Part shown: positions 1-64,000 of the stretch, piece by piece
Layout of the letters: each line of letters opens with the position of its first letter
Position numbering within the stretch: the first letter of the stretch is position 1
Assembly: GCA_964460215.1 (NCBI GenBank)
Contig: CAYWQM010000005.1
Location: forward strand, 16,211 to 80,210
DNA length: 64,000 bases
DNA from: an uncultured Lentisphaerales bacterium
GTDB taxonomy: Bacteria > Verrucomicrobiota > Lentisphaeria > JABSQK01 > CAJWLW01
Direction: 5' to 3'
Notes under the pieces: model-generated
Database searches by the model: none
The model's input: only the letters and a program-made list of their open reading frames with translations
Told to the model about the DNA's origin: nothing
Translations under genes and position numbers: made by a program

Positions 1-20
1 ATCTCAACGAGAAAGGCGAG

Positions 21-2546
21 TTGCAGTGGGCAAGCGAGTGCCGGGACCCGGCGGTGCATATTTTTCGGGTTGCCAACGGCTACGAACTCTCTGTCGACAA
101 CGTTGACGTGTCCATCAATGACCACCCCCTGATGGCCAATGCCGAGTTGGCCGACCTGCGCAAAGCCAGGACGGCTGTCCGCACCGTGCTCGTTAGCGCC
201 GTGACCGAGCTGCTCGCCAAGCTGCCGGCTGATATTCGGGTCGAAAGCAGCCTGATTTACAGCCGGGACTACTGTGACGCGCTCAATCGCCTCATCGATC
301 ATTATTCCGCGCTCAACGTCGTCGATGAACAATTACAACGACTTGACCGTGACGATTATGATGATTTCTCCGCCTTCGAAGTGACTGTCAGGAAGGCTGT
401 GGAATTCGAGGATTATTCTCGAACTGACTCTGTCGAGCGGCTTCGCAAAAGTCTTGTTCGCAAACGCGATCTACTGGATAACAAAGCCCTGCCATCGATC
501 TCATGCTCGTATACGCGGCTTCCAACCGAGCAGCTGGATGCGATAGCTGTTGCGATCAGCGATCTTGAAACGCGTTGTGCCAAAGAGGCCGAACAAGTGA
601 GGGGCGAACTTGGAAAAATGGTGGACTCCCTTGGGGAGGACAGCTCGCTTGACGAACTGCTGACGCACCTGCGGGCATCGGAGACCGACTATGACAATGC
701 CCGGCAGCTCCAGTGCGGTGATTTTATCTCGATCGGGTCATTCACTGTTGAAGTGAATCGTCTTACCGGCATGTCCCTGGTCTCTCGCCGTCAGAATCCT
801 TTTGACGTTGACATGACCTATTTCGATGTCGACGAAATTTTCAAGCCGTTGATGGTGAGCTTCGTAAGCACACGAATGGAACAGGCCGACAGCGTCGATG
901 TTGAGCAGGCCGAGAAGGCGATAAGCCAGGAGATTCTCGACAGTATTAAGGAGATACGGGACACTTTCCGTTTCGATAGTCGAATTATCGACCTGGAATC
1001 GGCAACAGAAGATAATCCACTGGTTCTCTGCCGGGCTGGTGATTTCGGCCATACGGCCTATTACGTCATCAGTGGCGAATTGTCAGTGATTATGGATCGT
1101 GCCGCGCTTCAGCTCCAGTCGTCGGACGGCCGTCATACGGTCAAGAAGAGAGGATTATCCAAGATCATTGCCCAGCTTTGGCAGAACAAGAGCCAGGTAA
1201 GGGAGTGGCGATCATCCGTGAATAAGGGGAAGGGGGACGCCGGCGATGCCGGCGAGTATATGTTCCTGCAGGATTCCGATGCCGTCTTTGACGTCCGCGA
1301 AGGCGGTCGATATGAGTTGGTGAATACCATCTGCGCCGGCGAGCTTGTCGGTGAGCTTTCGGCGCTCGGCCGCACACCGCGGACGGCAACGATTTTGGCC
1401 AACAAAAGCGCCCGGGTGCTGGAGATTCGCTGGCAGGGACTTCGTGATCTTCGCAGCAGCAGCAGCATCTTCAAAAACTTGACCGATGCCGCCTATCGCG
1501 AGCGTGCTCTCGACATGCATCTGCGCCGTATCGACGCCTTCAGTAAGCTTGATGATGCCGATCGCCAGCGCCTCGCCGAAAAGGTCGAGCTCAGAACGAT
1601 CGGTGACTTCAACTGGCACATGTCTTTTATCGACCTCATGAAGGAAGGCTCTGATGCCCGTGACGAGATTGAGCCCATCGTCGCTGCGGAGGGACAATAT
1701 CCGGATGCGTTGATTCTCATACGCTCCGGTTTCGCCCGGGTTTCCCGTGAATATCATCATGGGCAGCGCACCGTCAGCTATCTCGGCAAGGGCGCGTATT
1801 TCGGCCTCGACGAACTCCTCCATAATTATCAGAATCCAGATGATGAAATCTGCTTTCGCCATAGCCTGAGGGCGATCGGTTACGTCGACGTGATCTTTAT
1901 CCCCCGTGAGGTTGTTTATGAGTACATCTTTGATAAAGATGCCAGCTTTAAGCCGCAGGCTGCCGATACGCACAGCGAACTGCGCACCTTCGACATCAAC
2001 GTTGATCAGATGGTCGTCGAGGAGTTAGTCGCTCAGCGCAGTATCAACGGCACGGCTGCAATGCTCATCGACATGGATCGCTGTACGCGCTGCGATGACT
2101 GTGTCCGGGGCTGTTCGAATGCGCATGATGGCAATCCGCGTTTCATTCGCCACGGCCCGATTGTTGACAACTTCATGATTGCCAACGCCTGTATGCACTG
2201 CAATGACCCGGTCTGCATGATCGGTTGCCCGACCGGGGCGATCCAGCGGAATATGGGCGGCGGCGAGGTCATTATTAACGATCTCACCTGTATCGGCTGT
2301 TCTGTGTGCGCCAACAGCTGTCCGTATGACAACATCCGGATGGTGAATGTGATCGACGATGAGGACAGTTATGAGTATGTGTCTGACCCCGCGACAGAGC
2401 GACCGGTCCAGAAGGCCACTAAATGCGACCTCTGTGTCGACCAATTGGGTGGCCCGGCCTGTGTCAATGCCTGTCCCCACGACGCCCTGAAGCGTGTCAA
2501 TCTGAGCGATGTCCCGTCACTCGAAGCCTGGCTGAATGAACGATGA
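21..2546 (+). CDS. Multidomain redox/sensor protein: ~330-aa coiled-coil-rich N-terminal region of unknown function, two cyclic-nucleotide-binding (CAP_ED) domains, C-terminal 4x[4Fe-4S] ferredoxin module (DmsB/NrfC/HybA-like)
   Basis: cNMP phosphate-binding cassettes are visible in the translation: GDFGHTAYYVISGELSV...GELVGELSALGRTPRTATILA and ALILIRSGFARVS...GKGAYFGLDEL. Four Cys clusters follow: CTRCDDCVRGC, CMHCNDPVCMIGCP, CIGCSVCANSCP, CDLCVDQLGGPACVNACP. The stop overlaps the next gene's start (ATGA at 2543-2546). The 5' end may be truncated or the start uncertain because the ORF begins near the window edge. Confidence 0.7.
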   Translation: MQWASECRDPAVHIFRVANGYELSVDNVDVSINDHPLMANAELADLRKARTAVRTVLVSAVTELLAKLPADIRVESSLIYSRDYCDALNRLIDHYSALNVVDEQLQRLDRDDYDDFSAFEVTVRKAVEFEDYSRTDSVERLRKSLVRKRDLLDNKALPSISCSYTRLPTEQLDAIAVAISDLETRCAKEAEQVRGELGKMVDSLGEDSSLDELLTHLRASETDYDNARQLQCGDFISIGSFTVEVNRLTGMSLVSRRQNPFDVDMTYFDVDEIFKPLMVSFVSTRMEQADSVDVEQAEKAISQEILDSIKEIRDTFRFDSRIIDLESATEDNPLVLCRAGDFGHTAYYVISGELSVIMDRAALQLQSSDGRHTVKKRGLSKIIAQLWQNKSQVREWRSSVNKGKGDAGDAGEYMFLQDSDAVFDVREGGRYELVNTICAGELVGELSALGRTPRTATILANKSARVLEIRWQGLRDLRSSSSIFKNLTDAAYRERALDMHLRRIDAFSKLDDADRQRLAEKVELRTIGDFNWHMSFIDLMKEGSDARDEIEPIVAAEGQYPDALILIRSGFARVSREYHHGQRTVSYLGKGAYFGLDELLHNYQNPDDEICFRHSLRAIGYVDVIFIPREVVYEYIFDKDASFKPQAADTHSELRTFDINVDQMVVEELVAQRSINGTAAMLIDMDRCTRCDDCVRGCSNAHDGNPRFIRHGPIVDNFMIANACMHCNDPVCMIGCPTGAIQRNMGGGEVIINDLTCIGCSVCANSCPYDNIRMVNVIDDEDSYEYVSDPATERPVQKATKCDLCVDQLGGPACVNACPHDALKRVNLSDVPSLEAWLNER

Positions 2547-3361
2547 CGCTCCACAAGCGGCGGCGCCGGAACATCATATTATTCTCTGTCGTCAGTCTGC
2601 TGACCATCTGGATCAGCTTCCTCTGCGACCGCAATCATACCGATATCCGCCACTTCAGCGGTTGGCTGATGTTCGCTCTGGTCGTTTTTCTCGCCGCTTT
2701 TAATCTGCGTAAACGCCTGAGCTTTCTGCCCATCCTGCGAGCGGCTACATGGCTGCAACTGCATATTTATCTGGGCCTGTTCTGCGGCCTGATCTTTGTC
2801 ATACACGTTGGTGTTGGGTTGCCCAATGGTCCTTTGGAAATAACCTTGTCGCTCCTATTCCTTCTTGTGTTTGTAAGTGGGATTGTCGGGCTCGCCCTCA
2901 GCCGGATCTTACCGCGTCGCCTCACCAATCAGGGTGAGGAAATTATTTTTGAGCGGATGCCGATCTACCGTCGCCAACTCAGGGACAAGGCAGAGGAGCT
3001 GGTCCTGTCGTCATTGACGTCCAGTCGATCCAAGATGCTTGCGGAGTTCTATAGCGAAGAGCTGGCAGTGTTTTTTGTTGCACCGTCTTATCTGCTCTAT
3101 CACCTGTTCATGGGGCAGCGACCGTTGAATCGGATTCTGGAAAAAATCGATAATCAGAAACGCTATTGCAATGACTCCGAGTGTGAACTGATCGAGCAGC
3201 TTCGCGAATTAGTAGTCAAGACGTACGAACTTGATCGCAGCCAATATTTGCAGGGGCTCCTGAAGGTTTGGCTGTTTATCCACATTCCTGCCACCTTCGC
3301 GCTGTTCGCTTTCATTGTCCTGCATGTGATCCTCATCCACGCATATGTGGGGTCAGGCTGA
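2543..3361 (+). CDS. Polytopic membrane protein (~5 TM) with conserved intramembrane His residues; putative heme-b/quinone-interacting anchor (DUF4405-like guess)
   Basis: Hydrophobic segments LFSVVSLLTIWISF, WLMFALVVFLAAF, LHIYLGLFCGLIFVIHVGV, ITLSLLFLLVFVSGIVGLAL and WLFIHIPATFALFAFIVLHVILIHAYV contain His. Start is coupled to the upstream stop; its own stop (TGA 3359-3361) overlaps the next ATG (TGATG). Confidence 0.5.
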   Translation: MTLHKRRRRNIILFSVVSLLTIWISFLCDRNHTDIRHFSGWLMFALVVFLAAFNLRKRLSFLPILRAATWLQLHIYLGLFCGLIFVIHVGVGLPNGPLEITLSLLFLLVFVSGIVGLALSRILPRRLTNQGEEIIFERMPIYRRQLRDKAEELVLSSLTSSRSKMLAEFYSEELAVFFVAPSYLLYHLFMGQRPLNRILEKIDNQKRYCNDSECELIEQLRELVVKTYELDRSQYLQGLLKVWLFIHIPATFALFAFIVLHVILIHAYVGSG

Positions 3362-5760
3362 TGCAATTGCAGGAATTCCGCCATGATCAGAGCAGCTATG
3401 AGCGACCCGGCCAGAAATGGGTCTGCGGCCGACTGGCAGACGGCCGGCCATGCAGCTGCGGTCCGAAACCCAATGGCCGATGCAGCCAGTCGGATAATCC
3501 ATGCAAGCCACAGCTGAGCCTTCGCTGTAAGCGTAATATGCTGGCCCTGTTTGTCTTTCTCGGCAGTTGGGTGATTGTCGGCGTGGCGCTGTTTCTGCAA
3601 AATGAAACGGATGTATACATCTCGCCGGGTGAACTGAGCTTCCATCACGGGATAGTTCGCGACGAGGACGGGAAGACGAATTGCGGAGCCTGTCATGACA
3701 TGAACGCCGATCATGGTTGGCTGAACGCCGCGGTGTCGCCAAAAACCGCCTTGGACCACAGCCGGAAATGTCTGGATTGTCATTTTCTTGACAAGTCTGA
3801 CGATTTGCTTAAGCCGCATGGCCTTGCCAGCGGGCGTGGATTTTCCGCTGCGATCAAGGAGAAATTTGATGTGGATGTGGCGTGTAGCAAATGTCACGTT
3901 GAGCATAAGGGGTTCAATGCTCCGGTCACCGTGCTGAGCGATGCGCAGTGCCAGTCCTGCCACGAAAAACAGTTCGATGGCTTCAATCAGGGGCACCCGG
4001 AGTTTACCCTGTACCCCTACGCCAATCAGGTCAGCGTCAGGTTCGACCACCGACAGCATCTGGACGTCAAGTCAAAGGAGATGAAGGCGATCGGCGGCAA
4101 ATGCAGCCATTGCCACGTCCCGTCTGCGTCCGGGCGAATGATGCAACACAGGCCTTTTAAGGAGACTTGTGCTGCTTGTCATCTCAACCCGAATCTATTT
4201 AACAAGTCTTCGGCACAACTCACCCTCCTCAAGCTCAACCCACCCAGCGCCTCCGATGCGGCAGATATCACGCCGTTGATGCGGCTTTTCTCTCCGGAAT
4301 TGAATCGTCTTGCAGAGAGTGAAAGCGCCGATCCTGTCAGTGTCCATATGGCGACTCGACGCTTCCTCCGTCAGTTGCAGCTGGGGTTGCCGCTGGTCGA
4401 ATCCCAGTCTGGCCCGGTACGATCTATCTTTGAACGCCTGTCTGCCGACACGGTAAACGAAACGATGGGGGCTGAGGAGCTTGACCGCAGCCTGTTCTAC
4501 TATGATTATGCCAAAGACACTGAACAGGGTAAGGCTTGGATATACTGGCTGCTGGCCTCCCGCTTAACCGACAAAGACATCAATGCTGTTGAAGAACGGC
4601 TTGTGCAGCGCTTCGTGGATGTGAACAGTGGGGGCCTGAGCGGGGAATTCGAGTTCTTCAAGCTGCTGGACGCGGAGAATTCTCTGCATGATCTCGTCAC
4701 CGCCGCCGTGGCCTCCGGCAAGCTGGCAGCCTACACGAAGGGGGTGATCGCTGCCGATGATCCCGAAATTGAGGCGATTGTCAACTATCTGAAGTCTGAC
4801 CAGATGAAGATGCATATTGCCGAGATCGTAAAATCTATTCCACCGAATTTAAAACTATCGACCCCCGAGAAGGCGCTCAAGAAGCAATTGGACAAGATCG
4901 CAAAAAAACTCAGTCCCGAGGAGAAGGCGCTCCCTGTCCGTGACCGGCTTTGCAAGCTCATCCTGGAGGACCGGGCAAGGGGAAAGTTCAAAAAATACAG
5001 TTCCTCGTTGTTGAAGAAAAAGGACAAAAACCTTTACACCTACCTCTCCAAGACCAAGGCTGCGGACCTGGAGAAGACAAAGGTGGATGATTGCCTGAAG
5101 GCCATCGACTCGAGCCTCTCGAAAATCGCCAACCTCCTGGCAATCGAGGGCGGTGCGGCGTCGAAGTTGCCGGTCATGCCGAAGGGGTTCAAGCCCCGCT
5201 GGGAGCCGCCGCCAGCCGCGACGGTCCGCCATCGATTGGAGGTGGCATCGATAAGCAATTGGCGCTTTGAGGCGTCCAATGATTCTTTGATCTACACCAG
5301 CACTGGCCATGCGGATCCGGTCTTCAAGGCGGTACATGAACTGGCGGCGCAATTGAGTGACAAGGCATCTCCAAAACTCCTTGCGGAGTTGTCACGAGGA
5401 GGGCAGTGCCGGTTCTGTCATCAGCCGGAAATAAGCTTTCGCACGGAGCCGCGGCAGGTGCAGATGAAGTGGGTAACGGCCAAGCCCAAGCGGTTGCAGA
5501 AATTCAATCACGAGCGCCACGCCGGCCTTGATTGCCGAACCTGTCACCAGTTCAAGGAAGAAAATAGCGCTGTTGCCACTCTTTTCCCCGGCTACAAGGG
5601 AAGCTTCGAGCCGATTAGTCGGTCGCTGTGCGCGAGGTGCCATCAACCCCAGAAGGTTGGCGACGGCTGTCTCAAGTGTCATAACTACCATCCCATGTCA
5701 CTGGCCCATGACAAGCAGCAGCACGAATACCTCCTGCGCCTCTTCCGCCGTCAGAAATAA
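3361..5760 (+). CDS. Decaheme c-type cytochrome, N-terminal Cys-rich cytosolic tail plus single TM anchor
   Basis: Ten CXXCH motifs: CGACH, CLDCH, CSKCH, CQSCH, CSHCH, CAACH in the N-terminal block and CRFCH, CRTCH, CARCH, CLKCH in the C-terminal block. TM helix MLALFVFLGSWVIVGVALFL is preceded by CGRLADGRPCSCGPKPNGRCSQSDNPC. A ~400-aa heme-free, Lys-rich middle region is present. Start chosen at the ATG at 3361 (ORF track opens at 3268 but that 5' part overlaps the upstream gene). Confidence 0.8.
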   Translation: MQLQEFRHDQSSYERPGQKWVCGRLADGRPCSCGPKPNGRCSQSDNPCKPQLSLRCKRNMLALFVFLGSWVIVGVALFLQNETDVYISPGELSFHHGIVRDEDGKTNCGACHDMNADHGWLNAAVSPKTALDHSRKCLDCHFLDKSDDLLKPHGLASGRGFSAAIKEKFDVDVACSKCHVEHKGFNAPVTVLSDAQCQSCHEKQFDGFNQGHPEFTLYPYANQVSVRFDHRQHLDVKSKEMKAIGGKCSHCHVPSASGRMMQHRPFKETCAACHLNPNLFNKSSAQLTLLKLNPPSASDAADITPLMRLFSPELNRLAESESADPVSVHMATRRFLRQLQLGLPLVESQSGPVRSIFERLSADTVNETMGAEELDRSLFYYDYAKDTEQGKAWIYWLLASRLTDKDINAVEERLVQRFVDVNSGGLSGEFEFFKLLDAENSLHDLVTAAVASGKLAAYTKGVIAADDPEIEAIVNYLKSDQMKMHIAEIVKSIPPNLKLSTPEKALKKQLDKIAKKLSPEEKALPVRDRLCKLILEDRARGKFKKYSSSLLKKKDKNLYTYLSKTKAADLEKTKVDDCLKAIDSSLSKIANLLAIEGGAASKLPVMPKGFKPRWEPPPAATVRHRLEVASISNWRFEASNDSLIYTSTGHADPVFKAVHELAAQLSDKASPKLLAELSRGGQCRFCHQPEISFRTEPRQVQMKWVTAKPKRLQKFNHERHAGLDCRTCHQFKEENSAVATLFPGYKGSFEPISRSLCARCHQPQKVGDGCLKCHNYHPMSLAHDKQQHEYLLRLFRRQK

Positions 5761-6031
5761 TCGAAACCTGTAGCCATATCACCATAAATTTCCCGTAGTA
5801 ATTTGTTCGTGATGTTCCCCCACATCGCGGTTGCCCGCGTGTGAATCAGCAGGGCGCCTTGATCTATCATCGGTCTCACCGTAAACGCATCTGCGGCCCG
5901 CCAACGTGCCGGGTGCCGTCCCGGTGGTCGGCATATCACCCGTTAACTTTATGTTGGTCAATAAAAAGAAGAGGCGTAGATTAGAAAAGCATGTCCCTTT
6001 GCTTTATGGCATATGACAATGACAGGGTGAC

Positions 6032-6841
6032 GTGACAATGAAACTTACAGCAGAAGAAGTAGCCAAATTTGAAGACGAAGGATATTTATTTTTTCCCAAC
6101 AAGTTTTCCAGTGCCGAGGCGAAGGTCCTGAAAAATGCCGCGGGTGATGTCTATGCTATGGACCGCGAGGAAGTCTGGAGGGAAAGTTCCGGTGTCGCCC
6201 GCACGGCATTCGCGGCCCACACGTACCATGAAGCCTTCATGCGCCTTGGCTGCCACCCGAGATTGATCGGGCCTGTAAGCCAGCTGCTCGACGGGCAGGT
6301 CTACATACACCAGTATAAAGTCAATGCCAAAGCCGCCTTCGACGGTGACGTCTGGCAATGGCATCAGGACTATGGCACGTGGAAACGCGACGATGACATG
6401 CCGGAACCCAGGGCCATGAATATCGCTGTATTCCTTGACGATGTGACCGCGGCCAATGGGCCCCTTTTGTTTATTCCAGGCAGCCACAAACTCGGCGTCA
6501 TAGATGCAGGGCACGACCTTGAAACCACCAGCTATCCGCTGTGGACACTGGATCGGGAAACAGTAACTGAACTGGCGGAACGGGGTGGCTGTGTCGCGCC
6601 AACTGGTCCGGCAGGCAGTGTCCTCCTGTTTTCATCCCTGATGGTTCACGCAAGCCCTCCAAACATCAGCCCATTTGGACGGATCATCGTTTATCTTTCC
6701 CTGTGTCAGGTTGATAATCACATCCGGCAATTCAACCGCGAGGAATGGATTGCACACCGTGATTTCACACCAATCGAGCCCCTGGCCGATGATTGCCTCG
6801 AAGAACTGATAGGTGACGGTGGACAAGGGGCAGCGGAGTAG
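6032..6841 (+). CDS. Phytanoyl-CoA dioxygenase (PhyH) family Fe(II)/2-oxoglutarate dioxygenase, ectoine-hydroxylase-like
   Basis: VWQWHQDYGTWKRDDDMPEP...NGPLLFIPGSHK resembles the EctD/PhyH signature (W-H-x-D ... GPL..IPGSHK). Confidence 0.75.
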   Translation: MTMKLTAEEVAKFEDEGYLFFPNKFSSAEAKVLKNAAGDVYAMDREEVWRESSGVARTAFAAHTYHEAFMRLGCHPRLIGPVSQLLDGQVYIHQYKVNAKAAFDGDVWQWHQDYGTWKRDDDMPEPRAMNIAVFLDDVTAANGPLLFIPGSHKLGVIDAGHDLETTSYPLWTLDRETVTELAERGGCVAPTGPAGSVLLFSSLMVHASPPNISPFGRIIVYLSLCQVDNHIRQFNREEWIAHRDFTPIEPLADDCLEELIGDGGQGAAE

Positions 6842-7023
6842 CCGGAACAGGGCGAGCTTGCGGAGTTGTTTGATTGAAGAGGCAACTAAAATTGTATTAC
6901 GGGCAATGACAACCGGCTCGATTGATCGAACCCGAAAGCTCTCCCGCCACCGCGGGACCGTTCCGGGCTGTTCATCTCACCGTTGGTCCATGAGGCTTTG
7001 TCAGAGGACACAGGAGTAAGGCG

Positions 7024-7440
7024 ATGAAAGGAATTAAGGCCGCGGCAATCCAGTTTACTCACGCGCCTGGGGACAAAGCGTTTAACTGGGGGAGGATTCG
7101 ATCGTTCGTTAGGGAGGCCGCTGCGCAAGGCGTGGACCTCATTGTTTTTCCGGAGATGTGCATAACCGGCTACTGGCATGTGAGGAAGCTCTCCAGGGCA
7201 GAGGTCGAGTCCCTGGCCGAGTCTGTTCCGGCCGGCCTCTCGACGCAGGAACTGCTTACACTCGCAGCGGCCAATAACATGACCATTGGCGCCGGACTCA
7301 TCGAGATCACCGATGCCGGAGAACTGTTCTCTCATGCGTGGCCAAAGAAAGGTAGCGGAGAGAAGCACCCCTTCTGGATACCATGCACAAACCCTCTTGC
7401 GAAAGAAGAGATCCTCTCTAACCTTCGGGCATTCTCATGA
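7024..7440 (+). pseudogene. N-terminal fragment of a carbon-nitrogen hydrolase (nitrilase superfamily); homology ends at ~7329 (..ITDAGELF)
   Basis: AAIQFTHAPGDKAFNW...DLIVFPEMCITGY...TIGAGLIEITDAGELF matches the N-terminal half of CN_hydrolase including the catalytic-Glu FPE motif. Downstream residues (SHAWPKKGSGEKHPFW...) have no family similarity. Its stop overlaps the start of the inserted transporter gene (ATGA at 7437-7440). Confidence 0.55.
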
Positions 7441-8306
7441 TCGTTAACGTTCTTCTGCCACTCATTCTCGCCTTTATCATGTTCTCTCTTGGGCTGGGAC
7501 TAAAAAAGGCTGATTTTACCCGCGTGGTGCAATTCCCTACCGCCTTTGGAGTAGGCCTATGCAACCAGCTATTCTTGCTTCCTGTCATTGCCTTTGCCTT
7601 AGTAAAAGCCTTTAACCTTAGCGGTGAACTGGCAGTGGGCATGATGATTCTTTCCTTCTGTCCAGGAGGCGTGACCACCAATGTTTTGGCCCGCCTTTCT
7701 AAAGGAAATGTCCCACTTTCCATTTCCATGACCGCCTTCACCAGTCTTGCGTCGATTCTGACCGTTCCTTTTTTAGTAGCCCTGAGCGTTCGGCACTTTT
7801 TAGGGGCTGAAGCACTTGCTGTGAATGTTGGCGAGCTAGGCATCAAAATGTTCCTTATCACCGCCGTTCCCGTTCTCCTGGGGATGCTCGTCACGAAGAT
7901 GGCACCGGGCTTCACCAAAACAGCGTCTAAACCAATTTCCTTAATCGCCATTGGTCTCTTCTGTCTCATGATTGTCGCAGCGCTTGCTAAGAACTGGGAC
8001 GTCGTTGCAAAGCATTTCCCAACCCTTGGTCCTGCCCTCATCACGCTCAATATCACCCTGTTAGCGGTCGGTTTTCTTAGCTCGCGCCTCGCCAAGCTCG
8101 ATACCAAAGATGCCTCCACGATCAGCATCGAATCTGGAATCCAGAATGGGACTCTTGGTATCGCTGTGGGCGCTCTTATCGCCGCTGGAACGGCCGAAAC
8201 CCTTCCTCCAACAACCGTTCCTTCAGCCGTTTACGGAGTCTCCATGTACTTAGTTTCTATTCCCTTTGTCATCTGGAGAGCGAAAACAAACCGCTCTAGC
8301 GATTAG
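7437..8306 (+). CDS. Bile acid:sodium symporter (BASS/SBF) family transporter
   Basis: ~9 TM helices; LSFCPGGVTTNVLARLSKGNV is characteristic of BASS. GC (~50%) and codon usage differ from the flanks (~62%). Confidence 0.75.
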   Translation: MIVNVLLPLILAFIMFSLGLGLKKADFTRVVQFPTAFGVGLCNQLFLLPVIAFALVKAFNLSGELAVGMMILSFCPGGVTTNVLARLSKGNVPLSISMTAFTSLASILTVPFLVALSVRHFLGAEALAVNVGELGIKMFLITAVPVLLGMLVTKMAPGFTKTASKPISLIAIGLFCLMIVAALAKNWDVVAKHFPTLGPALITLNITLLAVGFLSSRLAKLDTKDASTISIESGIQNGTLGIAVGALIAAGTAETLPPTTVPSAVYGVSMYLVSIPFVIWRAKTNRSSD

Positions 8307-8480
8307 AGAAACTTGCGACTTGGCAACTTCCAAGGGAATGAAATTCGCCCTCTACCTTCAATACAGATCTCCCGTCAGTACCGTGGGCCTGCTCAAGGAG
8401 GTCAAGGGAATTGGTTCCTCTGGTGCTATTTTCCTTCCGCACCACGGAATCAAAGGTGACGAGCACGACAATCTCGAGAT

Positions 8481-9161
8481 AACACCTATGTCGTTGCCAT
8501 GCCGGACGGTCGTGTTGAAAGCCATCGCAAGCTCCACTGTTTCATCAGCGAGCATATGAAGTCTGGCGATGCGTACACGGTGTTCGATATCCCGCAGGGT
8601 GCCCGCGTAGGTGTTCTCATCTGTTTTGACAATAACATTGGTGAGAATGTGCGAATAACGGCGCTGAAGGGCGCGGAGATCCTGTTGGCGCCGCACCAGA
8701 CAGGCGGGTGTGATTTTCCGAGTCCCCGTTGCATGGGTAAGATCGACCCGCAGTTGTGGGAAAACCGAGACCGTGATGCCGCCGCGATCGAGGCTGAATT
8801 TCGTGGGCCCAAGGGGCGAGAATGGTTGATGCATTGGCTCCCGGCTCGAGCTCATGACAATGGGCTGTTCCTGGTCTACAGCAATGGTGTGGGTGTTGAT
8901 GACGACGAGGTGCGTACGGGCAACGCCATGATCCTCGACCCCTACGGCGACATTCTGTCCGAGACGTGGGTGCCGCGGGATGCAATGGCCGTGGCGGACC
9001 TTGATCCCGATTGTCTCGACATGTGCACGGGTCAACGTTGGTTGACAACTCGCCGGCCGGAACTGTATGGGCCGCTCATTGAGCGATCCGGCAAGGAGAA
9101 AGATACGCGCACGGTGCGCTTTGCCAGGAAACAATCACCCGACCAGGCTCCGTCAGGCTAA
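8481..9161 (+). pseudogene. C-terminal fragment of the same carbon-nitrogen hydrolase (first ATG at 8499; homology starts ~8481 right after an in-frame stop)
   Basis: NTYVVAMPDGRVESHRKLHCF...GARVGVLICFDNNIGE...LFLVYSNGVGVDDDEVRTGNAMILDPYGDIL matches the CN_hydrolase C-terminal half (YRKLH Lys, catalytic Cys in ICFD). It continues exactly where the 7024 fragment stops (..GELF | NTYVV..). Confidence 0.55.
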
Positions 9162-10668: not shown

Positions 10669-11976
10669 ATGCATGCAGCAACTGCGAAACTTAATGAACT
10701 GGTCGAACAGGATCTGGCGATCAGGAATGGACCGCAAGCGGTTGAGGAGGCTGGTAGCCAGGCGGATTTGTTTCATTGGCCAATTGTGACGGAAGAAGAC
10801 GAGCAGGCAGTGCTCGAAGTGTTGCGTGACGGCGGTCGGCCGTCGGGCACGGACATCAGCATGCAGCTCGAAGCCGAGATGGCAGCGTGGCATGGTGTGA
10901 AGCACGGATTGACCTATCCCAACGGCACACTGGCATTGCAGACGGCTTTCTGGGCGGCCGGCGTCCGTTGCGGCGATGAGATCATCGTTCCCAGCATCAC
11001 CTACTGGGCCAGTGCCATGCCGGCATTCGCGCTCGGTGCGACCGTCGTCTATGCCGACATCGACGCAGATACGCTGTGTATAGATCCGAACGATATCGAG
11101 CGGCACATCAGCCCGCGCACGAAGGCGATCGTGCCGGTGCATTATTGCGGACATCCGTGCGACATGGACGCGATCCTGCCGATCGCCCAGAAGCATGGAC
11201 TGAAAGTGATCGAGGACGTATCGCATGCCCAGGGTACCTTGTACAAGGGCAGGATCGTCGGATCGTTCGGAGACGCCGCGGCGTTTTCGATGATGTCGGC
11301 CAAGAGCTTCGCTGCCGGTGAAGGCGGCATGCTGATCACCGACGACGACGGCATCCAGCAGCATGCCATCGCCTATGCGCACTATGCGCGACACGAGTCG
11401 CTCGAGCATCCGGACCTGGCGCCGCTGGCCGGCATACCGTTCGGCGGCATCAAGGGGCGGCTCAATCAGATGTGCTCGGCTGTGGCGCGGGTGCAGTTCA
11501 AGTATTACCCGGACCGAATCAAAAATATCCAGGCGGCGATCAACCGGTTCTGGGACCTGCTTGCGGACACCCCGGGCCTGCGAGCGCATCGGCCCGCGGC
11601 GGACTCCGGCAGCACGATGGGCGGCTGGTACTGTGCGGTCGGGCATTACCTGCCGGAGGAACTCGGTGGTCTGCCGGCGGCAAAGTTCTGCGAAGCGGTC
11701 CGGGCGGAAGGCAGCGACACGAATGCGGGCTGCAATTTCCCCTTGCACCTGCACCCGGTGATGAACGACGCTGATATCTACGGCGACGGCAAGCCTACGC
11801 GCATTGCCAACTCCGGTCGTGACCTGCGCCAGCCCGAAGGTTCATTGCCGGCGGCGGAAGCAACGCGCGGCCGGGTCATCACTATTCCGTATCTGAAGCA
11901 CGACCGGCCGGAAGCCGTCGAGCAGCACGCCGCAGCATTCCGCAAAGTCGCCTTGCAGGCGGACAAGCTCGTCTAG
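10669..11976 (+). CDS. DegT/DnrJ/EryC1/StrS-family PLP-dependent (sugar) aminotransferase
   Basis: WPIVTEEDEQAVLEVLRDG...GDEIIVPSITYWASAM...AIVPVHYCGHPCDMDAIL...SFSMMSAKSF (Lys in SAKS) is typical of DegT family. Confidence 0.85.
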   Translation: MHAATAKLNELVEQDLAIRNGPQAVEEAGSQADLFHWPIVTEEDEQAVLEVLRDGGRPSGTDISMQLEAEMAAWHGVKHGLTYPNGTLALQTAFWAAGVRCGDEIIVPSITYWASAMPAFALGATVVYADIDADTLCIDPNDIERHISPRTKAIVPVHYCGHPCDMDAILPIAQKHGLKVIEDVSHAQGTLYKGRIVGSFGDAAAFSMMSAKSFAAGEGGMLITDDDGIQQHAIAYAHYARHESLEHPDLAPLAGIPFGGIKGRLNQMCSAVARVQFKYYPDRIKNIQAAINRFWDLLADTPGLRAHRPAADSGSTMGGWYCAVGHYLPEELGGLPAAKFCEAVRAEGSDTNAGCNFPLHLHPVMNDADIYGDGKPTRIANSGRDLRQPEGSLPAAEATRGRVITIPYLKHDRPEAVEQHAAAFRKVALQADKLV

Positions 11977-15926: not shown

Positions 15927-17072
15927 ATGCCCTCACTTCAGTTCCACACAGGCCTTCTTGTCTTGGCAATGTCAGCCATGCATATGGCTGCGGCTGTTGT
16001 CGCGGAAGAGAACCATGCCCGGGCGGAAGCGGCGCTTACCCGCGGTGCGGAGCGGTTGCTGGCGTTGCAGAACGACGACGGATCATGGGGGAAACCGCCG
16101 ATGATCGGGATCACAGCCCTATGTGTCATTGCTTTGCACGATGCCCCCGGCATCGATGCCGGGAAACGCGACGCCGCGATCGATGCCGGTATAGAGTTCC
16201 TGCTTGCCGATCTTGACGAGGACGGCACGGCAGAGAAGTTCTTCGGGCTGCGTAGTCAGTCGGCCTTCTGGGAGAAGACGCCGCGCTACGCCACCTATTC
16301 GATCGCCGTCACGCTCCTGGCCATGGCGACCGTTGACAAGCCCGAACACATACCACTGATCAAACGTGGCCGTGCCTACCTGCGTACGCTGCAGCGGGTC
16401 AACCCCAATTCAAAGCACCACGGCGGCTTCGGCTATGGTGCCGGTGGCCGCAGCGCCAACCTGTCGATTACTGCCTGGTCCGCCGAGGCCATGCACCACA
16501 CAGCCTATGTCGAGGGTGACGAGCACGGTGCAGACCCGACCGTGACAGCACAGAACGAGGTAATGTGGGCGTCGATCGAAGCATTTCTCGAGGCAACTCA
16601 GAAAAATCCGACTGTGGGCCAAGATGCTGCCGAGGACAGCGATGCCGGCGGACTCGGCTACAAGCCGTCGAAGGATGCCTCGAAAGTGGTTGTCAGCGGA
16701 GCGATGAGCTATTCCGGGTACAAGACCATGTTGTACGCCAAGCTGCCGCCCGATGATGTTCGCGTCCGGGCAGTGCGGAAATACATCGCTGCGAACTACG
16801 ATTTGTCTGAGGATCCCGGCAGGGGGAAGGCCGGTTATTACTACTATTTGCACGCGATGGCGAGGGCGCTGGACGCGGCTGGTTTGGATAGTCTGAAGCT
16901 TACGGACGGGCGTTTGGTCAAATGGCGCGAGGAGATTATCTCTGTGCTCGTTGGGCTGCAAGGCGAGGATGGCGGCTGGCACAATGCGTACGGCAAGTAT
17001 ATGGAATCGATCCCGGAGCTGGTGACGGCCTACGCCATGATGACCCTCAAGACCACTCTCGGTACCCCGTAG
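15927..17072 (+). CDS. Secreted prenyltransferase/squalene-oxidase-repeat (alpha-alpha toroid) protein
   Basis: Signal-peptide-like N-terminus. Repeats LQNDDGSWG and LQGEDGGWHN are typical of the terpene-cyclase/prenyltransferase beta-subunit repeat family common in PVC bacteria. Confidence 0.6.
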   Translation: MPSLQFHTGLLVLAMSAMHMAAAVVAEENHARAEAALTRGAERLLALQNDDGSWGKPPMIGITALCVIALHDAPGIDAGKRDAAIDAGIEFLLADLDEDGTAEKFFGLRSQSAFWEKTPRYATYSIAVTLLAMATVDKPEHIPLIKRGRAYLRTLQRVNPNSKHHGGFGYGAGGRSANLSITAWSAEAMHHTAYVEGDEHGADPTVTAQNEVMWASIEAFLEATQKNPTVGQDAAEDSDAGGLGYKPSKDASKVVVSGAMSYSGYKTMLYAKLPPDDVRVRAVRKYIAANYDLSEDPGRGKAGYYYYLHAMARALDAAGLDSLKLTDGRLVKWREEIISVLVGLQGEDGGWHNAYGKYMESIPELVTAYAMMTLKTTLGTP

Positions 17073-60828: not shown

Positions 60829-61332
60829 TTGAACGCGGCACCGCGAATTGCCGCCCGCGCAACAACCAACTTCGAAATCCGGACGATGATCTCAATGCCA
60901 GCCAACAAGTACGATTACTTCGCCGGCTCCCTGCCGATGCTCAAGGCCGACGGCAGCCAGGGCCTGAGTGTCGGGGCATTCCTCGATGACTGCGAGCAGC
61001 AACTCACTTCGGCCGATTTCCAGGCGTTGACCGCTGCCCGGCGCGGTGCCGAGGAATTGTCCAGCCATGCTATTGCCCGCGCCTGGCAGCAGCACGATCG
61101 CGAAGTCCGTAATCTGCAGGCCGGAGAGGCGCTGTTCAAACTGCAGTTGCTCGAGCGCCAGCAGTCGTTCAGCTGCGAGGCCGGACATGAGGTGCTGGAA
61201 CAAGCCCGCAGCAGCCTGGCATCAGTCGGATCGTACACCATAGAGATTCGTAGGAATCGTTGTTTCCCTGATTCTGCTTCTGATAGGCTCAGGCACGACA
61301 TGGGCCTCCGCGGGGAGCTCGGCGTTGGGTGA
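60829..61332 (+). CDS. Hypothetical protein
   Basis: 167-aa ORF with protein-like composition (..MPANKYDYFAGSLPMLKADGSQGLSVGAFLDDCEQQL..). No recognisable motif. Overlaps an antisense ORF, so coding status is uncertain. Confidence 0.3.
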   Translation: MNAAPRIAARATTNFEIRTMISMPANKYDYFAGSLPMLKADGSQGLSVGAFLDDCEQQLTSADFQALTAARRGAEELSSHAIARAWQQHDREVRNLQAGEALFKLQLLERQQSFSCEAGHEVLEQARSSLASVGSYTIEIRRNRCFPDSASDRLRHDMGLRGELGVG

Positions 61333-61740
61333 TCCAGACTTCACGGCGTCTGGGGTGGGGTACTTCTGTGTACTCATCTTTGTCTGCGCCTATATCCTGG
61401 TGATGAGCGAGGAGTACTTGCAGCTCAGAAAGTCAAAGCCTGTGTTGGTGGCCGCGGGGTTTATTTGGCTTTTGACAGCTTGGGCCTTGCAGTCTCAAGG
61501 GTACGATTCCCGCTACGCTGAACCGGGCCGTCCGGGCAACTATATAATTTGAAGGAAGACCCTTCGGAATCTAGAAATCTTTGGGAAGAGAAGCCGGGGA
61601 TTGTTAAAGAACTATCTGACTTGCTTAAAAAGGTGAAAGGCGGGGATGCCTGAGCTAAGTTCTGTAATTGACTTAATGGCCCATACCTTAATAAACGGTA
61701 GCAGCCCCTTTCCCGAACCGGAATCGGGCAGATTTGAAAC

Positions 61741-62271
61741 ATGGCGTACAAGGTATTTATCTTTACATTGTTAATGATCACCTGGGTTGTTCTCTCAGGG
61801 CAGTTCGACGCTTTTCACTTGGCTCTGGGCCTGATCTCGTGTGGCCTGGTGACGTGGATGTCATCGGACTTGTTATTCCAAACCCGCGAGCAGTCGGTTG
61901 GAGAGAGGGTCTGTGAAGGTTGGAGGTTGGCTTTTTATTTTTTGTGGATGATCTGGCAGATTTTTCTGGCGAACATTGCGGTTCTGCGACTCGCTTTGTC
62001 GCCTGATGCGATGAAGAAAATCAATCCGAGCATTGTTCACTTCAAGACCGGACTGAAATCCGACTTCGCCAAATTTCTGCTCGCCAACTCGATTACCCTA
62101 ACCCCTGGAACGGTGACGATTAAAATCATGGGGGATGACTTTTATGTGCATGCAATTAATGATGCGGCGGCGGCGGGATTAGATGGTGAAATGGAACGCC
62201 GCATTGCCCGCATCTATCGTTCTGAGCGGGATGCTCGGGGTGGCAACTCGGACGGAAAGGAGTCTGCCTGA
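61741..62271 (+). CDS. mrpE: Na+/H+ antiporter subunit E (MrpE/MnhE; MbhA-like)
   Basis: ..LANSITLTPGTVTI.. (TLTPGT signature) and 2 TM helices. Confidence 0.8.
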   Translation: MAYKVFIFTLLMITWVVLSGQFDAFHLALGLISCGLVTWMSSDLLFQTREQSVGERVCEGWRLAFYFLWMIWQIFLANIAVLRLALSPDAMKKINPSIVHFKTGLKSDFAKFLLANSITLTPGTVTIKIMGDDFYVHAINDAAAAGLDGEMERRIARIYRSERDARGGNSDGKESA

Positions 62272-62272
62272 T

Positions 62273-62584
62273 ATGATCACTTTTTTCATGTGGGCGGGAA
62301 TTGCCTTATTGATCATGATGATCCCGATTTTTTATCGGATGAATATTGGGCCGACGGCAATTGATCGCATTGTCGCGGTCAATGTGATTGGTACTAAAAC
62401 AGCTATACTACTTGTTTTTATAGGCACGATTTTTCCCGGACAGAGGATCGGGATGTTCGTGGATTTTGCCTTGGCGTACGGGCTGTTGAATTTCATCGGC
62501 TCACTGGCAGCAGCGAGATTTTTCCATCGTTCCAAAGCGACGGGAGGAAAAATTGATGTTGCGGGAGACGCAAGGAAATCCTGA
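62273..62584 (+). CDS. mrpF: Monovalent cation/H+ antiporter subunit F (MrpF/MnhF; MbhB-like)
   Basis: ..GPTAIDRIVAVNVIGTKTAILLV.. is an MrpF motif. Start at MITFFMW (ORF track opens 62183). Confidence 0.75.
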   Translation: MITFFMWAGIALLIMMIPIFYRMNIGPTAIDRIVAVNVIGTKTAILLVFIGTIFPGQRIGMFVDFALAYGLLNFIGSLAAARFFHRSKATGGKIDVAGDARKS

Positions 62585-62587
62585 GTT

Positions 62588-62953
62588 ATGATTATCGATA
62601 CAATCAGCATAATTCTCATCGTAGCGGGCCTGGTGTTTTTCTTTGGCTCGGTTGTCGGAGTGATTCGCTTCCCTGACTTTTACACACGCATGCATGCTGC
62701 GGGCAAGGGAGATACTTTGTCGAGTTTGCTCGTGGTGATGGGCTTTGCGGTTTATCATTTCGGGCAAGTACATTGGACAAATTTTGTATGGGCGGATTTG
62801 CTGGTCATAGTCAAACTGCTCGCTATTTGCGCTTTCATCATGCTGACGTCACCGACGGCTACGCATGCGCTGATGGATGCCGGGTATGAGGACGGAATCG
62901 AACCGTTGACGCGCAAGGAAGGGAATGCCTTGTCTCAAAACGAAAGCGAGTAA
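62588..62953 (+). CDS. mrpG: Monovalent cation/H+ antiporter subunit G (MrpG/MnhG; MbhC-like)
   Basis: VIRFPDFYTRMHAAGKGDTLSSLL is the classic MnhG motif. Confidence 0.85.
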   Translation: MIIDTISIILIVAGLVFFFGSVVGVIRFPDFYTRMHAAGKGDTLSSLLVVMGFAVYHFGQVHWTNFVWADLLVIVKLLAICAFIMLTSPTATHALMDAGYEDGIEPLTRKEGNALSQNESE

Positions 62954-62974
62954 TAAGAGAATATTTTTCACAGC

Positions 62975-63220
62975 ATGATCTGGCAGTTCGACATCATTAT
63001 TCTTCTTTTCCTCGTGGTCACCGCAGTGATCTCGTTACGGGTGAAAGATTTACTGGCAGCATCAATGATCTTCGGGACTTACAGTTTTCTCATCTGTCTG
63101 CTGTGGGCGGGGATGGGGGCCGTGGATGTGGCATTTACCGAAGCCGCGGTGGGGGCGGGTATCAGCGCGGTTATTCTGATCGCCACCGTTTACAATACTA
63201 AAAGAAAATCATCGGATTGA
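62975..63220 (+). CDS. Small membrane subunit, MbhD/DUF4040-like (MrpB N-terminal-domain-like)
   Basis: 81 aa, 2-3 TM helices. Sits between mrpG and mrpB, as MbhD does in Mbh-type modules. Confidence 0.5.
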   Translation: MIWQFDIIILLFLVVTAVISLRVKDLLAASMIFGTYSFLICLLWAGMGAVDVAFTEAAVGAGISAVILIATVYNTKRKSSD

Positions 63221-63224
63221 ATTT

Positions 63225-63986
63225 ATGAAGTGGGTTGGACTTATCGCAGTTTTGTTTACCGGAGGGCTTTTGCTTTCGGCTGTCGATGATTTCCCTTATT
63301 GGGGGAATGCAGAGTCGCCGGCTAATGACAGTGTGGTGTCGCATTATTACATTGAAAATACGATGAGGGATACCGGGGTGCCGAACATGGTGACCGCGGT
63401 GCTGGCGGATTATCGTGGCTTCGACACCATGCTTGAAACGGTTGTTGTCTTGATAGCGGTCATTGCGATTATGGCCATCCTGCGAGTCATGAATCAGACG
63501 CCGGGTGGAGCGAAGCCTTCGGCGCCTCATGCGATTGGTGACCATCATGACATTATTGTTGGTACTACCTGTCGCTTATTGGTTCCGGTGTTGCAGCTGT
63601 TTGCTCTATATGTGATCGCGCATGGCCATCACAGCCCGGGCGGAGGATTTCAGGGCGGAGTCATTCTGGGGACGAGTTTCATTTTGTTGGCATTGGCAAA
63701 AGGTTTGAATCCCGTTCTGGAGCGATTACCGGAAAAACGTTACGTGAAATTGGCTTTTGTTGGCGTTGCCATCTACGCGGGTTTCGGAGTGATGTGTCAG
63801 TTTCTGGGAGAGAACTTTCTCGACTACGGTGTGTTGCATGTGTTGATGCCCGCAAGCGACGCAGCTCAGGCTCGATCCCACAGTATGCTGGGCGTGGAAA
63901 TCGGAGTAGCGTTCACTGTGTCAGCGATCATGTTTGCAATTTACGCCAATCTGTCTTCGAAAGGTGAACTGGAGGGAGGTCTGTAA
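63225..63986 (+). CDS. mrpB: Na+/H+ antiporter subunit B (MrpB/MnhB; MbhE/F-like)
   Basis: NMVTAVLADYRGFDTMLE and HGHHSPGGGFQGG are MnhB signatures. Confidence 0.85.
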   Translation: MKWVGLIAVLFTGGLLLSAVDDFPYWGNAESPANDSVVSHYYIENTMRDTGVPNMVTAVLADYRGFDTMLETVVVLIAVIAIMAILRVMNQTPGGAKPSAPHAIGDHHDIIVGTTCRLLVPVLQLFALYVIAHGHHSPGGGFQGGVILGTSFILLALAKGLNPVLERLPEKRYVKLAFVGVAIYAGFGVMCQFLGENFLDYGVLHVLMPASDAAQARSHSMLGVEIGVAFTVSAIMFAIYANLSSKGELEGGL

Positions 63987-64000
63987 TTATGGGTGCTTTT

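Follow-up and report, generated by a model that had tools for sequence, protein, structure and literature searches.

What does the low-GC operon at the right end of a 64,000-nucleotide stretch of DNA from an uncultured Lentisphaerales bacterium (contig CAYWQM010000005.1, positions 16,211 to 80,210; this whole stretch is called the window below) encode, and how did it come to lie there? The operon begins with mrpE, mrpF, mrpG, a small MbhD/DUF4040-type gene and an mrpB fusion. An earlier note, made from the DNA letters and a list of open reading frames (ORFs) and called here the sequence-only reading, had likened this module to respiratory complexes of the membrane-bound hydrogenase (Mbh) kind, with a stand-alone antiporter of the Mrp family as the alternative. 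In our estimate, the operon encodes, with a probability of about 0.8, a stand-alone group 3 Mrp (CPA3) cation/proton antiporter, which was acquired as a low-GC island inserted into nhaD.

Gene content and identity of the operon

Gene identities were assigned from the ORF listing together with Pfam and NCBIfam profile searches. Inside the window, five complete genes follow one another on the plus strand, and both the genes and their order agree with the sequence-only reading: mrpE (61741..62271, 176 aa; PF01899 MNHE, E=2e-35), mrpF (62273..62584, 103 aa; PF04066, E=3e-11; NF009244, E=3e-18), mrpG (62588..62953, 121 aa; PF03334, E=3e-24; TIGR01300, 78.7 bits versus a cutoff of 63.1), the gene of an 81-aa MbhD/DUF4040-type subunit (62975..63220; PF13244 MbhD, E=1e-17; 77-79% identity to its counterparts in relatives), and that of a 253-aa fusion of MbhE with MnhB/MrpB (63225..63986; PF20501, E=1e-9; PF04039, E=9e-28; NF009161, E=4e-63). 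The mechanical ORF of mrpF begins at 62183; the 103-aa form is the one adopted by gene callers and in relatives, and the gene has this length in all related contigs. The mrpB gene had been taken to be cut by the window end; it is complete to 63986, and the gene that is cut is mrpC, of which the window holds the first 12 bases (63989..64000, plus strand, with the ATG at 63989) and whose full 151-aa product is encoded at 10765-11220 of the near-identical contig L001 (PF00420, E=3e-21). The TM17-21 region of MrpA (TM, transmembrane helix) is said to be equivalent to MbhD plus MbhE; judged by sequence, the 81-aa protein would correspond to the first part of this region and the MbhE domain of the fusion to the rest. 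The joining of an MbhE-like domain to MrpB/MnhB is an MbsE-type architecture, and the best match of the fusion in the PDB is 6u8y_E (E=7e-21).

The continuation of the operon was taken from public contigs that carry exactly the same 253-aa fusion protein (n=16), and neighbourhoods were inspected over about 10 kb on each side of the gene used in each look-up. Over the last 10 kb of the window, contig L002 is collinear and 99.8% identical, and L001, which lies on a 99-kb contig, is 99.6-99.9% identical to the window apart from two small indels (window coordinate = L001 + 53224). The whole operon reads mrpE-mrpF-mrpG-MbhD-(MbhE+MrpB)-mrpC-D1-D2-91-aa gene-D3, ten genes on one strand with short gaps or overlaps. 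On L001, mrpC is followed in the same orientation by D1 (517 aa), which in NCBIfam is matched best by Mrp subunit D families, above hydrogenase families; by D2 (496 aa), a Proton_antipo_N protein that resembles MrpA-N/NuoL; by the gene of a 91-aa membrane protein (L001 14280-14555) that matches no family and is predicted to have two TM helices; and by D3 (594 aa), the last gene of the operon, which scores 690 bits against the NF009310 equivalog "Na(+)/H(+) antiporter subunit D" (cutoff 564). Further 3' on L001 lie 72-aa and 90-aa debris ORFs and then a convergent COX15-SCO1 gene.

As the sequence-only reading had pointed out, the non-canonical gene order is common to Mbh and to archaeal stand-alone Mrp, and E-F-G-MbhD-(MbhE/B) follows the Mbh/Mbs layout A(E)-B(F)-C(G)-D-E-F(B)-G(C)-H(D), which the operon matches. 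This order and the MbhE+MnhB fusion mirror the membrane-bound sulfane reductase (MBS) and favour a group-4 [NiFe]-hydrogenase-like respiratory complex of the Mbh/Mbs type, as do the PDB searches, in which 6u8y_E was the best match of the fusion, MbsH 6u8y_H that of D1 (200 bits, with bacterial MrpD close behind at 185 and 179 bits), and 6u8y_X and MrpA 6z16_A were tied for D3 (about 103 and 102 bits); D2 matched NdhF, MbhH and MrpA-N. To our knowledge, the known Mbh, Mbs, Hyf and Ech systems encode their catalytic genes within the same operon. However, no NuoB/C/D/I/H-like genes (the Mbh catalytic and anchor set MbhJ, K, L, N and M), [NiFe]-hydrogenase genes or formate dehydrogenase (FDH) genes were found within 10 kb downstream on the near-identical contigs, and the catalytic module is likewise absent within about 10 kb of the operons of four relatives (Zhongshania and three other genomes). 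Of the downstream genes that had been anticipated, the mrpC/D-like ones are present and the hydrogenase- or FDH-like catalytic subunits are not; what follows is limited to mrpC, three genes like mrpD/A and the gene of a small membrane protein, an outcome that had been named beforehand as refuting a complex like Mbh, Mbx or formate hydrogenlyase. In addition, an MrpA-N-like module for input of the proton-motive force (PMF) is present, D2 keeps the MrpA residues E140, K223 and K299, and D1 scores better with the Mrp-D than with the hydrogenase families of NCBIfam, and we consider a respiratory complex highly improbable. As far as sequence comparison goes, the small-subunit layout appears Mbs-like and the large subunits not specifically hydrogenase-type. 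The alternative of a stand-alone archaeal-type Mrp antiporter, which had also been put forward, fits the gene content without catalytic genes. DAB-type CO2 uptake, in which DabB is also a Proton_antipo_M protein, was ruled out, as there is no DabA-like gene at the locus.

The stand-alone antiporter is supported by a Mrp domain set that is complete in one cluster, with MrpA-N, MrpA-C (as MbhD and MbhE), B, C, D, E, F and G all recognized by Pfam or NCBIfam profiles. Group 3 Mrp systems have been defined by the lack of a full-length mrpA, an irregular gene order and, often, multiple mrpD genes (PMC5703873, PMC8415708), and the present cluster has no full-length mrpA, an irregular order and several mrpD-like genes. 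In HMMER alignments, E143 and K228 of D1 align with E137 and K219 of Bacillus pseudofirmus MrpD (7qru_D), and E144, the TM7 Lys and K309 of D2 align with E140, K223 and K299 of MrpA from the same species (7qru_A); alanine substitution at these MrpD and MrpA residues kills antiport with the complex retained (PMC5703873). The TM5 Glu, TM7 Lys, TM8 Lys and TM12 Lys motifs of D3 were read by eye only, and so were, in translations unaligned to references, the small-subunit motifs IDRIV, TLTPGT, SPTATH and DYRGFDTMLE, for which MrpF D32/R33, MrpE T113/P114, MrpG P81 and MrpA R773/E780 are the reference activity residues. An AlphaFold model of D3 from a 31-sequence alignment (predicted local distance difference test, pLDDT, 83; predicted template modelling score, pTM, 0.78) contains helices at residues 450-472, 487-547 (61 residues), 552-568 and, at the terminus, 571-593. 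Its best Foldseek matches are MrpA (7qru_A, 6z16_A), NdhF and NuoL, which are the subunits bearing the lateral helix HL.

From these homologies we infer that the ten-gene complex would carry out PMF-driven exchange of Na+ (K+, Li+) for H+. The Na+-side module would consist of E, F and G together with the MrpB portion of the fusion, and the connecting bundle of MbhD, MrpC and the MbhE portion. D1 (MrpD-like), D2 (MrpA N-terminal-like) and D3 (MrpA/NuoL-like, with a long C-terminal lateral helix and an anchoring helix) would supply three proton-channel modules, in the putative order (E/F/G/B)-(MbhD/MbhE/C)-D1-D2-D3. The PMF would drive H+ inward via the three modules, and this flow would be coupled to Na+ extrusion at the E/F/G/B end along a chain of charged residues at the membrane mid-plane, with no redox module involved.

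The compositional break and the split nhaD gene

The lower GC of the module, which had been read as a sign of horizontal acquisition, is borne out by 1-kb windows over 62001-64000, with 0.48-0.51 versus about 0.55-0.63 across most of the window. Profiling of GC and codon usage, proposed earlier as a check, showed that the deficit persists at third codon positions: their GC content (GC3) is 0.49-0.61 in all ten operon genes versus 0.68-0.76 in the flanking genes on both sides. A native, vertically inherited operon, with a low GC owed to hydrophobic amino-acid content, would be in keeping with the fact that all products are membrane proteins and that GC at first and second codon positions is somewhat below that of the flanking genes. 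However, GC3 lies about 0.15 under the flanks, and nearby host membrane proteins have a GC3 of 0.74-0.76 (0.76 for a 212-aa protein, 0.74 for COX15-SCO1). Moreover, operon and flank GC are 0.502 versus 0.584 here, whereas in three relatives the operon matches its own flanks (0.588 versus 0.571, 0.516 versus 0.518, and 0.528 versus 0.520), and hence the low GC of the present operon is a trait neither of membrane proteins nor of the operon. Further evidence against a native operon is given below: nhaD is split, a scrap of ribE came with the island, which borders on an insertion sequence (IS) in strain variants, and a sister Lentisphaeria metagenome-assembled genome (MAG) has a different neighbour beside COX15-SCO1. 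We find a native origin scarcely credible, and the acquisition proposed by the sequence-only reading is backed by the GC3 break, the split nhaD, the ribE scrap, the IS in strain variants and a low divergence of the island.

Contig L173 contains the same island (99.4% identity) with another left flank, of host-like GC3 (0.72), and the match starts exactly at L001 8292, or window 61516, a position that marks a discrete left end of the island. From this point an AT-rich leader leads up to mrpE (61516..61740, plus strand; GC about 0.43-0.48); an Rfam scan of the leader and the operon start gave no match, and promoter- and terminator-like sites there were at chance level. In L173 (1-489) the island is joined to the C-terminus of an ORF of at least 146 aa with no Pfam match, and a hairpin spans the junction; such a left flank points either to a second site of insertion or to a rearrangement in part of the strains. 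Between strains, the island diverges by 0.14-0.18% versus 1.1-1.5% in both flanks (about 8-10-fold lower), which fits a recent arrival spread by recombination, with a confidence limited by the use of metagenome consensus contigs.

The two sides of the island carry the remains of one gene. On the left, a 75-aa ORF (window 61325-61552) holds the N-terminus of NhaD (NCBIfam NhaD_1 profile positions 1-27, E=4e-5; 60-67% identity to NhaD N-termini), and on the right, ORFs after D3 hold middle and C-terminal pieces recognized by profile search. These were mapped by tblastn with an intact 492-aa NhaD on metagenome contig L094, which a fragment-built query had matched at 76% identity. Residues 24-72 map to window 61337..61483 (plus strand), a pseudogene fragment that is the 5' remnant of nhaD, residues about 240-279 to L001 16434-16553, and residues 459-482 to L001 16556-16627 in another frame. 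Only these three stretches survive in the window lineage, in differing frames, and nhaD is there a pseudogene. The start of ribE (riboflavin synthase; MFTGIVE...) stands directly after D3, with 58 codons and a PF00677 match in L088.

Variants of the locus differ in how much of it is left. In L174, whose island is 99.4% identical, the ribE scrap is followed by an IS91-family transposase on the opposite strand and then by nhaD from about residue 145, with no deletion of residues 280-458. In L088 and L089 the IS is gone and the 280-458 deletion is present, and L001 and the window lineage have an additional 379-bp deletion. Contig L002 breaks (locus position 16429) exactly at this polymorphic deletion point, which fits mixed alleles in the sample. 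We propose that an island of about 8.2-8.4 kb, with a GC about 8 points lower, was inserted into nhaD, the single-gene Na+/H+ antiporter of the host, and would have replaced NhaD functionally; that it brought with it the initial 52-58 codons of a foreign ribE; and that later deletions in the window lineage took out the IS and further parts of nhaD. A search for the putative donor by means of the ribE scrap matched only other copies of the same island, and ribE follows D3 in none of the five relatives' loci examined. The JGI metagenome scan yielded no intact NhaD from this species; intact NhaD genes were found at 76% identity or less.

The surrounding genes point to a Lentisphaeria host. The nearest genome for COX15-SCO1 is the Lentisphaeria MAG (74% identity), in which the 337-bp flank beside this gene holds a different one (an ORF of DUF6370 and an end with a weak resemblance to ATP synthase c, E=0.05). 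Similarly, the 72-aa junction ORF (locus tag ACKJSG_07960) is annotated at NCBI as a hypothetical protein of a Lentisphaeria bacterium and also occurs in Tara data. With these matches, the assignment to a genome like those of the Planctomycetes-Verrucomicrobia-Chlamydiae (PVC) group, made earlier from the letters, holds good. Just 5' of the nhaD remnant lies an ORF of 167-171 aa (window 60829-61332, L001 7593-8108), whose length varies among strains through a 69-bp indel near window 61140; its window form has no family match, and its L001 form has a sub-threshold match to DUF2764.

The IS91-family transposase is found in the variants L173 and L174 and is missing from the lineage of L001 and the window. 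In L174 it is a 470-aa Y2 HUH transposase (6181-7593, minus strand) with an N-terminal Zn-binding domain (PF04986, E=4e-23; PF14319, E=2e-17), and a GC-rich palindrome stands just after the gene (element region L174 5980-7950). The ribE scrap of L088 ends ...CGATCGAAC|TGATAGGAAATT, which would place GTTC beside the IS end on the transposase strand, this end being read from a single variant. The oriIS end of IS91-family units is expected to adjoin GTTC or CTTG, and a GTTC tetranucleotide target has been reported next to oriIS in IS801 and IS1294 (PMC13181058). Comparison of the left end of the island with the IS end revealed short GC-rich similarities only. At the contig end of L173 (8684-8819) there is a fold-back copy of the IS region, probably an assembly artefact.

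Several points weigh against the reading of the operon as a stand-alone Mrp antiporter acquired as an island. A catalytic partner encoded elsewhere in the genome is formally possible, as the inspection covered flanks of about 10 kb; the right junction, which is beyond the window end, was taken from near-identical contigs; and metagenome contigs can be chimeric. The mrp genes are on the oriIS side, whereas one-ended transposition moves DNA beyond terIS, and the GC3 of the transposase is host-like (0.68), which leaves the IS unproven as a vehicle; it may instead be a resident element that captured or joined the incoming DNA. Moreover, the ion carried, the stoichiometry, the arrangement of the subunits and the part played by the 91-aa protein enter this reading as what we infer, and Mrp relatives can carry K+ or Ca2+ rather than Na+ (PMC5703873).

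The last point bears on another explanation, a stand-alone Mrp with a substrate other than Na+ (K+/H+ or Ca2+/H+ exchange), or one that works mainly in the reverse direction to control pH, as has been suggested for the Mrp of Pyrococcus furiosus. Precedents exist in Sinorhizobium meliloti Pha1, which handles K+, and in the Mrp of Thermomicrobium roseum, which handles Ca2+ (PMC5703873), and a role in pH homeostasis has been assigned to the P. furiosus group 3 Mrp (PMC8415708); in one relative (L091 8407-9687), a Na_Ca_ex (PF01699) transporter gene stands directly 3' of D3 on the same strand. Against this stand the marine origin of the host, with the operon genes also on a TARA contig and the junction ORF in Tara data, and the destruction by the insertion of the Na+/H+ antiporter NhaD, a loss most simply tolerated if the newcomer does the same job; specificity itself is unreadable from sequence. 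We regard this explanation as unlikely and retain a Na+/H+ antiporter of group 3 as the preferred reading.

Occurrence of the operon type and its tenth subunit

At E<1e-20, D3 has at least 8000 homologues, and the source names among the matches listed include Verrucomicrobia, Akkermansiaceae, Opitutae, Latescibacterota, Thermodesulfobacteriota and Zhongshania; the best non-self match among them is 70% identical. Zhongshania and three further genomes have the same ten-gene arrangement, again with the small protein between D2 and D3, and all ten subunits are collinear with their counterparts in three relatives at 44-79% identity. In Zhongshania, MbhD, MbhE and MnhB are joined in a single 334-aa protein. 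The operon of one relative adjoins PSCyt/PSD1/DUF1501 genes, neighbours that are typical of Planctomycetes and Verrucomicrobia. The module had been thought notable for a PVC genome, a view that is not sustained by homologues that are widespread, Verrucomicrobia, Akkermansiaceae and Opitutae included, and by an operon that is native to other PVC-type bacteria as well as to Zhongshania; the present system is a further case of a known, widespread Mrp type. The closest relative of D3 (70%, among the matches listed) occurs in a trio of a D2-like protein, a small protein and D3 (L086 8034-11809) with no E, F, G, B, C or D1 genes nearby, and these three can thus be encoded apart from the remaining subunits.

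The tenth subunit, the 91-aa protein, has counterparts of 91-118 aa (L086, L087, L090, L091 and L092), always between D2 and D3, and over six operons the family has 23 invariant positions, including FY..YG..CV.LV..A...RK..MR.E.YY. It belongs to no Pfam family, and a profile search of the PDB gave no significant match. In the structure paper on MBS, the length of HL rises with the number of pump modules (PMC7684303). It is possible, though we put this forward tentatively and at somewhat less than even odds, that the three-pump Mrp is a distinct CPA3 subclass, with a NuoL-length lateral helix on D3 and a family-specific two-TM subunit (about 90-118 aa), forming a free-standing complex-I-type arm on the Na+ module, maybe with a higher H+:Na+ ratio than that of canonical Mrp. 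If so, a multi-subunit Mrp of this subclass would be seen displacing a single-gene NhaD in a marine bacterium.

The main interest of the locus is the well-resolved replacement of nhaD by an mrp island, together with a three-pump Mrp type with a tenth subunit for which no functional or structural study was found in the literature searched. For annotation, the locus is to be read as a cation/proton antiporter, and it offers no evidence for hydrogen or formate metabolism in Lentisphaeria. For evolution, it would provide a clean, datable, in-place replacement of a single-gene antiporter by a multi-subunit island, with decay intermediates of the nhaD/island locus still coexisting in ocean populations. 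For bioenergetics, a three-pump Mrp type that is common in databases and has a long lateral helix and a tenth subunit still without a name would bear on the relation between the number of pump modules and stoichiometry.

At the other end of the window, positions 1-9000 form a second block of lower GC (0.52-0.555; GC3 0.54-0.66). Its genes encode an 841-aa protein with cNMP-binding and 4Fe-4S dicluster domains, a PhyH dioxygenase, an SBF-family transporter, and an 830-aa multihaem cytochrome c with MtrC/MtrF-like matches. The block could be a further acquisition or a module for extracellular electron transfer.

Comparison with known systems

With respect to its setting, the island resembles genes captured beside IS91/ISCR elements in that a Y2-HUH transposase with a Zn-binding domain adjoins it in strain variants (PMC13181058). 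Unlike those cases, the island is on the oriIS and not the terIS side, the composition of the IS is host-like, and the IS is deleted in the window lineage.

With respect to the complex itself, MBS/Mbx (6u8y) and MBH (6cfw) of P. furiosus share with it the order of the small subunits and, in MBS, the MbsE-type fusion, as well as a subunit in which HL and a terminal TM helix clamp the pump modules (PMC7684303). The present operon differs from both in having no MbsJKLMN-type catalytic and anchor module, in having three pump modules versus two in MBS and one in MBH, and in belonging to a bacterial mesophile. The NuoL-M-N arm of complex I is alike in its three homologous antiporter-like modules and in the long lateral helix from the distal NuoL-like subunit (PMC7684303), whereas NuoH/A/J and Q-module partners are absent here and the MrpE/F/G/B Na+-module, missing in complex I, is present.

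Canonical group 1/2 Mrp complexes (B. pseudofirmus 7qru, A. flavithermus 6z16, and Dietzia 7d3u) have all the functional domains found here, including the essential Glu and Lys of MrpA and MrpD, and D3 is structurally closest to MrpA. In contrast to them, the present operon distributes MrpA over three or four genes, has a permuted order, and includes one more antiporter-like subunit and a small extra subunit. The stand-alone Mrp of P. furiosus, mrpEFGBB'CD (PMC8415708), shares the E-F-G-B...C-D order; it has one antiporter-like subunit and no MrpA-type input module, whereas the present operon has three, one of them MrpA-N-like. MbhD is fused to MbhE in P. furiosus, whereas here MbhD stands alone and MbhE is joined to MrpB in the manner of MbsE, and the conserved 91-aa subunit is extra. 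Features in common with group 3 Mrp in general are the lack of a full-length mrpA, MrpA C-terminal domains that are separate or fused to MrpB, multiple mrpD-like genes, an order other than ABCDEFG, and the lack of a redox module (PMC5703873, PMC8415708, PMC7784846). Examples of this group are mrpCD1D2EFGAB of Aphanothece halophytica and mrpFGBCDDAE of Microbacterium TS-1, and the cluster of 'Ca. Nitrospira alkalitolerans' carries two extra NuoL/M-like genes after mrpD (PMC7784846).

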